64,000 nt of DNA, taken from positions 85,155 to 149,154 of the forward strand of contig CAWDGI010000002.1 in the NCBI GenBank assembly GCA_963801825.1. The letters run 5' to 3'. The translations under genes and the position numbers were made by a program. This stretch comes from Parachlamydiales bacterium. Lineage in GTDB: Bacteria; Chlamydiota; Chlamydiia; Chlamydiales; Parachlamydiaceae. The notes under the pieces were generated by a model. It had not been told where the DNA came from and made no database searches. It saw only the letters and a list, made by a program, of their open reading frames with translations. Below, in pieces: positions 2,674 to 5,600 of this stretch. Positions within the stretch are counted from its first letter, which is position 1. The number at the start of each line of letters is the position of its first letter.

Positions 2674-5600
2674 ATGCACACCTTTCAAGAATCGTTAAAA
2701 AATCTCTCTGCCTTCTGGGAAAAACAAGGCTGCATTATTCACCAAGGATATGACTTAGAAGTCGGAGCCGGCACCTTCAATCCCGCGACCTTTCTTCGCT
2801 GCTTAGGTCCTGAGCCTTATCAGGCGGCCTATATTGAACCTTGCCGACGTCCGACAGATGGCCGTTATGGCACCAATCCCAATCGTCTCCAGCATTACTT
2901 CCAGTATCAAGTCATCCTCAAGCCCTCTCCTCCGAATATTCAAGATCTCTATCTCCAATCGCTAGAAGCCTTAGGGTTCGACTTGAAAGAACATGACATC
3001 CGTTTTGTCCATGACGACTGGGAATCACCTACGCTCGGCGCTTGGGGATTCGGATGGGAAGTGTGGATGGATGGAATGGAAATCACCCAGTTTACCTACT
3101 TTCAAGCAGTCGGCGGAATTGAACTCAAACCCATCACGGGCGAAATCACCTATGGAATCGAACGGTTGGCCATGTATCTGCAAAAAGTCAATAGCATCTT
3201 CGATCTGCAATGGAATGAAAAACTGACCTATGGCGATATCTACCATCGCAATGAAGTCGAATGGAGCCATTACAACTTCGAAAAAGCTTCCGTAAAAATG
3301 TGGAAGACGCCATTTCGAAGATTATGAACAAGAAGCAAAAAAATTAATCGCTGACCATCTTCCCATTCCTGCTTATGACTTTGTCATGAAGGCCTCCCAT
3401 GCCTTTAATCTCTTAGATGCACGAGGGGCCATTTCTGTGACAGAACGGACCGGCTACATCGCTCGCATCCGCGACCTTGCCCGCCAAGTCGCCGAAACCT
3501 ATTTAGCCAGCCGGGAAAAGCAAGGCTACCCCTTGCTGCAAAAAAACGGCGTGGTTAAAACAAGCCCCCTGCTAGAGCGGCCCACTTTGCCGGAATCTCT
3601 CATTCATGCGCGCTCCGATCAAACAGAAGATTATCTCTTAGAAATTGGATCGGAAGAGCTGCCTGCAAGCTTTGTTTCCATCGGGAGTCAAAATTTAAAG
3701 AAAGAGATAAAAGCCTTGCTAGAGAAAGAAAAGCTCCCTTTTGAAAACATTGAGGTTTACGCCACTCCAAGAAGACTGGCCGTTTATGTGAAGGGATTGG
3801 CCAATGGCAAAACCACCCCAAACCATAGAACGAAAAGGGCCACCCATCGATCAAATTTATGATTCCAAGGAGGCTAAAACCCGCCGGCGAAGGCTTTTTT
3901 CGCTCCATTGGAAGGCAGTGCTCCTTCTTTAGAAACGATTCAGAAAGGAAAAATTCCAGGATTAGAAATCCGTTCCATCAAAGGGGTCTCCTACTTGATT
4001 GCCCATCTTCATCGAGAAGGACAGGCCACAGCGGCTATCTTGCAAGAACAGCTCCCTCTTTCATTCAAAATCTCGAATTCCCCAAAAAAATGCGTTGGGG
4101 AGATGTCGAGATCAGCTATGCCCGTCCTCTGCATTGGATCCTTTCCCTCTTTGGAAAAGAGGTCCTTCCTTTTCGTTTTGGTCCTCTTGAGGCAGGGAGA
4201 AAAACGTACGGCCATCGCCAGCTGGCTCCTGCCCCCTTTGAATTAAAAAAAGCACAAGATTATTTGGAGCGTTTACGCCATCATTTTGTCCTCGCCGATT
4301 TAGAGAGAGCGAGAAGCGTCGATTCACCGGCAGCTCGATGCATTAGAAAAAGAGCTCGGAGGGGTCATCCTGGAGCGAGAAAAAGTGATTCCCCAAGTCA
4401 TGAACCTGGTCGAATCTCCCTTTTTAACGGCTGCTTCTTTCAAACCGGAATTCTTACGCGCTCCCAAAGAGGTGCTCATTTCAGAAATGGTGGAGCACCA
4501 AAAATATTTTCCGGTTGCTGATCAAAAAGGGACTCTCAAAAATGTGTTCGTCATTACAGCCAACCGTGAGCCAACCGAGCAAATTCGGCAAGGAAATCAG
4601 CGCGTCTTATCCGCTCGCTTGTCAGATGGAGTGTTTCTCTACGAAGAAGATCTTAAATGCCGCTTAGAGGATTTTAACGAAAAGCTCAAGAAAGTGACCT
4701 TCCAAAAGAAATTGGGAACACTCTATCAAAAAGTCGAACGGATCATGGCAGATGCCGAGATCATTCAACAGAGACTCAAAATCAGCTCTCCGGAGAGAGT
4801 AAAACGAGCCGCTTTTCTTTGCAAAGCCGACTTGGCCTCCCACATGGTATATGAATTTCCAGAACTGCAGGGAATCATGGGACGGTATTATGCCTTGGCA
4901 CAAAGAGAAGAGAAGGAAGTGGCCCAAGCAATTGAGGAGCACTGGATGCCGCGAGGAGAGGAGGCCCCTTTACCGGAGACGGAGACGGGCATTGTGATTA
5001 GCTTGGCAGATAAGTTGGATAATTTGCTCGGCTGCTTTGCTTTAGGCTTAAAACCGACTTCCTCGAGTGATCCCTATGCTTTACGTCGCCAAGTCCTAGG
5101 AATGATTAAAATTCTCATTCGTGGGGGCTACTCTTTCACCTTTAAGAGAATGTTTGCTGGCTTGTGCGTCGTCCTTTTCTGCCTCTGTTCTCCGAATCGG
5201 GAGGAGGTTGTGGGGGAAATTTTGATCTTCATTACGAACCGTGTGAAAACCGTCTTCCAAGATTATGGATTTGCTAAGGATGAAATTGAGGCAAGCCTAG
5301 CAGAAGGAGGGGGCGGGAACGATCTATACGATATTTTTTGCCGTGTCAGAGCGCTCCATGAATTCCGTCAGGAGGCAAGAGAGCAGTTTCTTTCTCTTTA
5401 TGAAGTTTATAAGCGTGCGAAAGGGCAATTGAATGGCTACCACGGAAATACCGTGAAACAAGAATGGTTGGTTGAGCCTGCCGAAAAGCATTTACAGGAG
5501 CTCCTGAATCGACAGCAGGGCCCTTTCCAATCTGCTTTATCTCAGCGAGATTACCATCAGGCCTATCACTTAATTGCCATGATCCAGCCGGCTCTGGCCG

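Follow-up and report, generated by a model that had tools for sequence, protein, structure and literature searches.

A fused glycyl-tRNA synthetase gene, glyQS, lies on the forward strand at positions 2674–5728 of the window, i.e., the whole 64-kb stretch of DNA that was analyzed. Open reading frames, profile matches and structure matches identify it as an alpha and a beta subunit encoded in one frame, once that frame is repaired. As deposited, the gene does not contain an uninterrupted frame of ~1000 codons; its frame changes eight times, and the ORF listing resolves it into four to five pieces in two frames. The first-pass annotation had concluded that the gene as written was unable to yield a functional enzyme, and this is correct. 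The frame is broken into the pieces listed here.

2674–5728, + strand: glyQS, fused glycyl-tRNA synthetase gene whose alpha and beta parts share one frame once repaired
2674–3327, + strand: glyQS ORF piece, frame 1
3386–3862, + strand: glyQS ORF piece, frame 2
3859–4521, + strand: glyQS ORF piece, frame 1
3908–4246, + strand: further glyQS ORF piece, frame 2
4385–5728, + strand: further glyQS ORF piece, frame 2 (447 aa)

The N-terminal piece, of 217 aa, falls into a 90%-identity cluster with full-length proteins of 1015–1017 aa from other metagenomes. No tRNA or Rfam match was found in or next to glyQS, and no mobile element was found in or beside it when such elements were looked for. Tandem repeats are absent from within the gene, and other repeats in or beside it occur at chance level only. 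The block formed by glyQS and an adjacent kinase gene is bracketed by two low-GC stretches (1500–2650 and 7000–7500; 30–37% GC, as compared to ~45–49% in adjoining genes), in which only short ORFs without a family match are present.

Plain tblastn passes through short out-of-frame stretches and reports them as one frame. For this reason, the frame changes were located with our own frameshift-aware protein-to-DNA dynamic-programming alignment, in which eight intact orthologs at most 77% identical to the window gene (P0122, P0124 and L001–L006) served as references. The same frame changes were obtained with all eight references, namely eight one-base lesions within ~1.9 kb (window positions 3304–5193). 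All are 1-nt indels, one being possibly of 2 nt, and insertions account for six or seven of the eight.

3301–3308, + strand: frame change 1, +1, placed at ~3304 with all eight references by frameshift-aware alignment
3803–3819, + strand: frame change 2, +1, within 'ggcaaaaccacccc' (A4 at 3809–3812, C4 at 3816–3819)
3861–3885, + strand: frame change 3, +1, near 'aaggagg', from frameshift-aware alignment
3907–3922, + strand: frame change 4, +1, near 'ggcagtgct', without repeat context
4055–4070, + strand: frame change 5, −1, in 'cctctttcattc', directly ahead of the conserved NLEFPKKMRWGD block
4303–4321, + strand: frame change 6, +1, in or beside the dinucleotide run 'agagagag' (4302–4309)
5138–5141, + strand: frame change 7, +1, start of an 18-codon out-of-frame stretch in the 447-aa ORF
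5190–5196, + strand: frame change 8, −1, frame regained after change 7

Frame change 1 is located inside the alpha-subunit domain, away from the alpha/beta boundary; four bases ('aaga') stand there between a Trp codon and 'cgc cat ttc' (RHF), at a place where the orthologs have one codon. For frame change 3, the other option is −2, by which a conserved Gly codon would be lost. Frame changes 7 and 8 form a compensated pair without a stop codon. Between them, the alternative frame reads PLRECLLACASSFSASVL, identical to L002 at 13 of 18 residues, while the open frame gives unrelated sequence. The longest homopolymer run at any of the glyQS sites is 4–5 nt, and inspection of the ten indel sites of the window revealed no common sequence motif (e.g., a methylation motif). 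Six frame shifts had previously been described between 3316 and 4320, all of which were recovered with the eight references, each within ~5–15 nt of its coordinate. The last 1.35 kb of the gene, earlier described as clean, instead contains the +1/−1 pair at ~5138 and ~5193; the six shifts thus stand, and the total is eight.

Repair of the frame yields a stop-free protein of ~1013–1014 aa in which no segment is missing. The repaired GlyQS matches the alpha catalytic domain (PF02091) over positions 1–278 of 278 (E = 8e-147), a domain that frame change 1 interrupts at residue 210 in the deposited sequence. On the same chain, it matches the beta body (PF02092) over positions 1–535 of 536 (E = 3e-184), followed by a DALR_1 anticodon-binding domain at residues 925–1007, and it matches the fused GlyRS structures 7lu4_A and 7xjy_A end to end. 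The predicted protein shares with the fused (alpha-beta)2 GlyRS family (Chlamydia; PDB 7lu4 and 7xjy) the arrangement of alpha, beta and DALR domains in one chain of ~1014 aa, and it is 70–77% identical to GlyQS orthologs of Parachlamydiaceae. It differs from that family in that the frame of the window gene is broken eight times, leaving no single ORF. In every respect tested bar the uninterrupted frame, the window gene is predicted to be an ordinary fused (alpha-beta)2 GlyRS.

Conservation of the repaired protein was assessed against 76 intact orthologs. Among columns conserved at ≥95%, the repaired GlyQS keeps 276 of 277 (71 of 71 in the segment with the six previously described shifts), as compared to median mismatches among the intact orthologs of 3 over all such columns and 1 in the same segment. 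At the 80% level, across the span with all eight frame changes, it is off consensus at 6 of 266 columns, as compared to 9–14 columns in the six closest intact relatives and a median of 15.5 over all. Segment by segment, the identity of the repaired GlyQS to L001 and L002 parallels that of L001 to L002. No nonsense substitutions, deletions or excess amino acid change were detected in the repaired gene. Neutral decay fixes roughly ten or more substitutions per indel. Eight neutral indels would for that reason be expected to come with tens of extra changes, some of them nonsense, and none was seen. With no nonsense, no deletion and no extra divergence, glyQS is therefore unlike a decayed gene. 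Judged by its predicted protein, the repaired glyQS shows no sign of relaxed selection.

The remainder of the window was surveyed with a three-periodic Markov frame scan trained on long window ORFs, with Pfam searches of 48 ORFs and with the frameshift-aware alignment. At least ten indels were detected in the window, eight of them within the 1.9 kb of glyQS. The Markov frame scan flagged only the 5' end of a RecD2-like helicase gene. Recognized Pfam families were covered over their full length, with the exception of RecD2 and a short-chain dehydrogenase (SDR), each of which contains an isolated lesion.

10627–12831, + strand: RecD2-like helicase gene with an isolated +1 indel at ~10733–10737, from Pfam and frameshift-aware alignment
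23601–24357, − strand: short-chain dehydrogenase gene with an isolated +1 indel at ~24193–24200, from Pfam truncation

Positions 1–28 of the OB_YrrC profile are unmatched in RecD2, and the true N terminus, MEQVCGYIERLTFHNPENGYTVA, begins at an ATG at 10665 in another frame than the main ORF. A further in-frame ATG upstream, at 10627, hides the lesion and gives an apparent ORF of 734 aa. In the SDR gene, an N-terminal ORF of 56 aa (24187–24357; Rossmann, TGGSRGIG) is out of frame with the body ORF (23601–24287), which is without the first ~40 profile positions. Since the missing N terminus was found in another frame in both cases, one extra base is indicated in each of recD2 and SDR. Indels of the same kind in these two genes indicate that the assembly is error-prone in general. 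When rlmN, dnaG, recD2, PLD, dapB and dapA (7.7 kb) were examined in the same alignment, one frameshift was found, as compared to eight in the 3.05 kb of glyQS. Under uniform placement, the chance that eight of ten indels fall in 1.9 kb of 64 kb is ~1e-9 by rough estimate, and the clustering in glyQS is far beyond chance. The assembly is thus one with sporadic indels and one dense patch. The genes flanking glyQS are clean and syntenic with those of relatives, which is evidence against a chimeric join.

Several other features of the window are recorded here as separate observations.

5746–7071, − strand: eukaryote-like Ser/Thr protein kinase, its kinase domain interrupted by three 54-nt (18-aa) tandem repeats at 6334–6478 (VEKNGYSxFLExLxD); the Pfam match covers profile positions 73–193 only
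7172–7264: 44-nt inverted repeat, 95% complementary with a 5-nt spacer, in the AT-rich gap between the kinase gene and dnaG
41950–42003: perfect 27-nt direct duplication at the start of a 257-aa ORF without assigned function
42812–43591, + strand: two ORFs in the same frame with a single stop codon (43118–43120) between them, the second with a weak DUF697 match to the C-terminal half of the profile only
48409–48465: 3.2 copies of a purine-rich 18-nt repeat, within 110 nt of the start (48356) of a called ABC ATPase ORF and ahead of the ABC domain

The inverted repeat at 7172–7264 could form a long hairpin or act as a terminator; alternatively, it could be a palindromic artifact of assembly. The ORFs at 42812–43591 may represent two genes, or a single gene interrupted by an in-frame stop.

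A scan of GTDB species representatives provided 80 chlamydial loci with an orthologous glyQS, among which those of the Parachlamydiaceae MAGs L001 and L002 are closest to the window gene. A comparison with orthologs of related strains had been recommended in the first-pass annotation; when this was run, glyQS was found as a single uninterrupted ORF in 79 of the 80 species representatives. The sole exception, L010 (MFD09286.bin.2.11, contig CAWACC010000003.1, glyQS at 8294–11335), is a Microflora Danica (MFD) MAG with a Flye-style contig name. Its glyQS contains seven indels, mostly deletions, at reference residues 287, 370, 384, 399, 418, 445 and 535, and its conserved residues are fully kept after repair. 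With ~60% identity to the window glyQS in the C-terminal part, L010 is not a sister lineage, and its indels are unlike those of the window in sign and position; for these reasons, the lesions were not inherited. The indel cluster of L010 falls in the same third of glyQS as that of the window. Three junctions of the two genes lie within three alignment columns of each other, a coincidence that is not significant (estimated p ~0.1, from two clusters only and with placement uncertain by 5–10 residues).

A protein search yielded C-terminal fragments of three more fragmented glyQS copies (L081–L083), each with one to three indels, on ENA metagenome contigs (ERZ250394xx and ERZ250395xx) with 'contig_N' naming like that of L010.

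L081: frameshift in glyQS at ~3738
L082: frameshifts in glyQS at ~3404 and ~3960
L083: frameshifts in glyQS at ~3676, 3720 and 3940

Candidate frameshifts are also present in dnaG of L082, at ~7914 and 8490. Together, L081–L083 point to a general indel problem in such assemblies. An all-against-all tblastn of the flanks of 83 related loci yielded no usable background frameshift rate, owing to noise. Sequence from the same species as the window was found neither in a protein collection of 5.8 billion clusters (best non-self match, 70% over the C-terminal 447 aa), nor among GTDB species representatives (best match, 73% for the C-terminal part and 77% for the complete gene), nor in JGI metagenomes by exact-pattern scans.

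Taken at the level of sequence, these observations make it very probable that the frame changes in glyQS are indel errors of a long-read metagenome assembly, in a stretch with poor support. The encoded protein is otherwise preserved, and for this reason sequencing or assembly error is almost certainly involved. The contig probably belongs to a MAG assembled from long noisy reads without short-read polishing. In NCBI and ENA, the proteins of the window are all assigned to one contig of 571,531 bp, which would fit a long-read MAG. The ~1.9-kb stretch at 3304–5193 would have had poor read support, from a chance dip in depth or from a mix of strain variants, and would have kept read-level insertions and deletions, while the rest of the contig would have been corrected to about one indel per 8–30 kb. 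The real glyQS of the organism would then be an intact fused enzyme of ~1014 aa. Eight indels in 1.9 kb amount to a density of ~0.4%, similar in magnitude to the indel rates of raw reads. If the mean depth were ~6x, 1–2% of a genome would be covered at ≤1x, or ~1 kb per 64 kb, which would fit one patch in the window. This would predict about one patch in every 64 kb, or some tens across a genome, and it would then be unremarkable that one of ~20 long-read relatives (L010) is hit in the same 3-kb gene. Were the stretch a single raw read, two to three substitution errors would be expected at conserved sites; none was seen, which counts against an artifact, although the expected number is small.

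The pattern is reminiscent of gene fragmentation in long-read assemblies, in which single-base indels split otherwise normal genes (PMC9262707; proovframe, 10.1101/2021.08.23.457338; PMC12313526). MFD long-read MAGs are built from Nanopore reads alone, with Flye in meta mode as the assembler and a single round of Medaka polishing (PMC12313526). Indel rates in Nanopore assemblies rise at low coverage, and ~40x is needed for near-finished quality (PMC9262707). The likeness to such fragmentation extends to the sporadic lesions in other genes of the window contig (recD2 and SDR) and to a coding content that is fully conserved after reference-guided repair. Broken glyQS copies like that of the window were found in Nanopore-only or Nanopore-style relatives (L010 and L081–L083) and in no other species representative. 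Textbook residual Nanopore errors, in contrast, are scattered deletions in long homopolymers, while the window has eight lesions packed in 1.9 kb, mostly insertions. Errors in polished Nanopore consensus lean to deletions, as in L010, and the excess of insertions in the window accordingly counts against a Nanopore artifact. Likewise, long homopolymers are the classic site of residual Nanopore error, and sites without them count against an artifact. The recurrence of a cluster in the same third of the gene in L010 counts against randomly placed patches, at a level that is not statistically compelling. Local homopolymer indel errors had been proposed from the first reading of the gene; local assembly error is upheld by the small size of the indels and the conservation of the repaired gene, and the homopolymer component applies only loosely, with runs of ≤4–5 nt. 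The phenomenon is almost certainly the well-known long-read fragmentation of genes, unusual only in its local density, rather than a real biological feature.

A related account, which would still make the frame changes an artifact with a cause other than low depth, is a mixed-population consensus, in which reads from two or more strains or close species living together were merged over this gene, and polishing turned them into a mosaic with slips of register. Such slips would explain compensated groups of +1/−1 and +1/+1/+1, and the shifts do form groups with a net change divisible by three (3818+3870+3919, 4061+4306 and 5138+5193; likewise in L010), although this grouping is not statistically compelling. 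Most shifts are found in that third of the protein which is conserved least, and microdiversity is a reported problem for these soil MAGs (PMC12313526). Against this, L002 and L001 are closest to the window gene in every segment, with no foreign segment detectable, and no same-species sequence was found in the collections searched. Known relatives are only 67–79% identical in DNA even in the conserved alpha part, a distance too great for cross-recruitment of their reads. On balance, mixing of populations is an improbable source of the lesions. A chimeric or foreign segment from a known species was also considered and was rejected on the grounds that the closest relatives are the same throughout and their DNA identity is only 67–79%.

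Two further explanations take the indels as real in the DNA. One is a very recent pseudogene, in which a burst of small indels inactivated glyQS and tRNA charging was taken over by the host or by another GlyRS gene (replacement candidates being a second glyQS or glyS, or an alpha2-type GlyRS). The gene as written is indeed unable to encode the enzyme, two other window genes are frameshifted as in a genome undergoing reduction, and a second Parachlamydiaceae MAG (L010) is broken in the same segment of glyQS. These features are shared with bacterial pseudogenes of reductive evolution, in which a gene is frameshifted and more than one gene of a region is affected. The window glyQS differs from such pseudogenes in being an essential gene without nonsense changes, deletions or excess change, with its lesions in one patch. 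Eight indels come without nonsense or deletion, and the conserved columns deviate less often than those of intact orthologs; 79 of 80 related species keep glyQS intact, and L010 is not a sister lineage and has different indels. GlyRS is essential and single-copy in most bacteria (PMC9908026), and Pfam searches of 48 ORFs found no second GlyRS gene in the 64-kb window. Real indels would require that a burst recently hit the only GlyRS gene known here and, independently, the same segment in L010, and loss of the gene by this route is very unlikely. The other explanation is programmed recoding or transcriptional slippage, by which frameshifts real in the DNA are corrected in expression. Slippage at poly(A) tracts has been reported in some insect endosymbionts, and short A runs adjoin several of the window sites (AAAA at 3809–3812, near 3876 and near 4066). 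Recoding would nevertheless have to make eight corrections in both directions, at sites where the longest run is 4–5 nt and there is no long poly(A) tract or slippery heptamer; the sites at 3907–3922 and 5138 are without any repeat context. Nor is a frameshift conserved, as 79 of 80 orthologs are in one frame and the exception, L010, differs in the positions and signs of its lesions. With no slippery sequence, long run or shared motif and with 79 of 80 orthologs in one frame, programmed recoding is untenable, and its probability is close to nil.

If the indels were real, an intracellular bacterium would have lost its sole GlyRS, a remarkable event implying either a replacement GlyRS or a supply of charged tRNA by the host, together with a localized indel-generating mutational process; the sequence evidence is strongly against this. 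With assembly error as the preferred reading, the main value of the finding is as a quality flag for the contig, and probably for the whole MAG, as one with sporadic indels and at least one dense patch. For this genome, frame-aware correction or read-level checks are needed before trust is placed in gene calls, pseudogene counts, completeness estimates or any claim of a lost essential gene.
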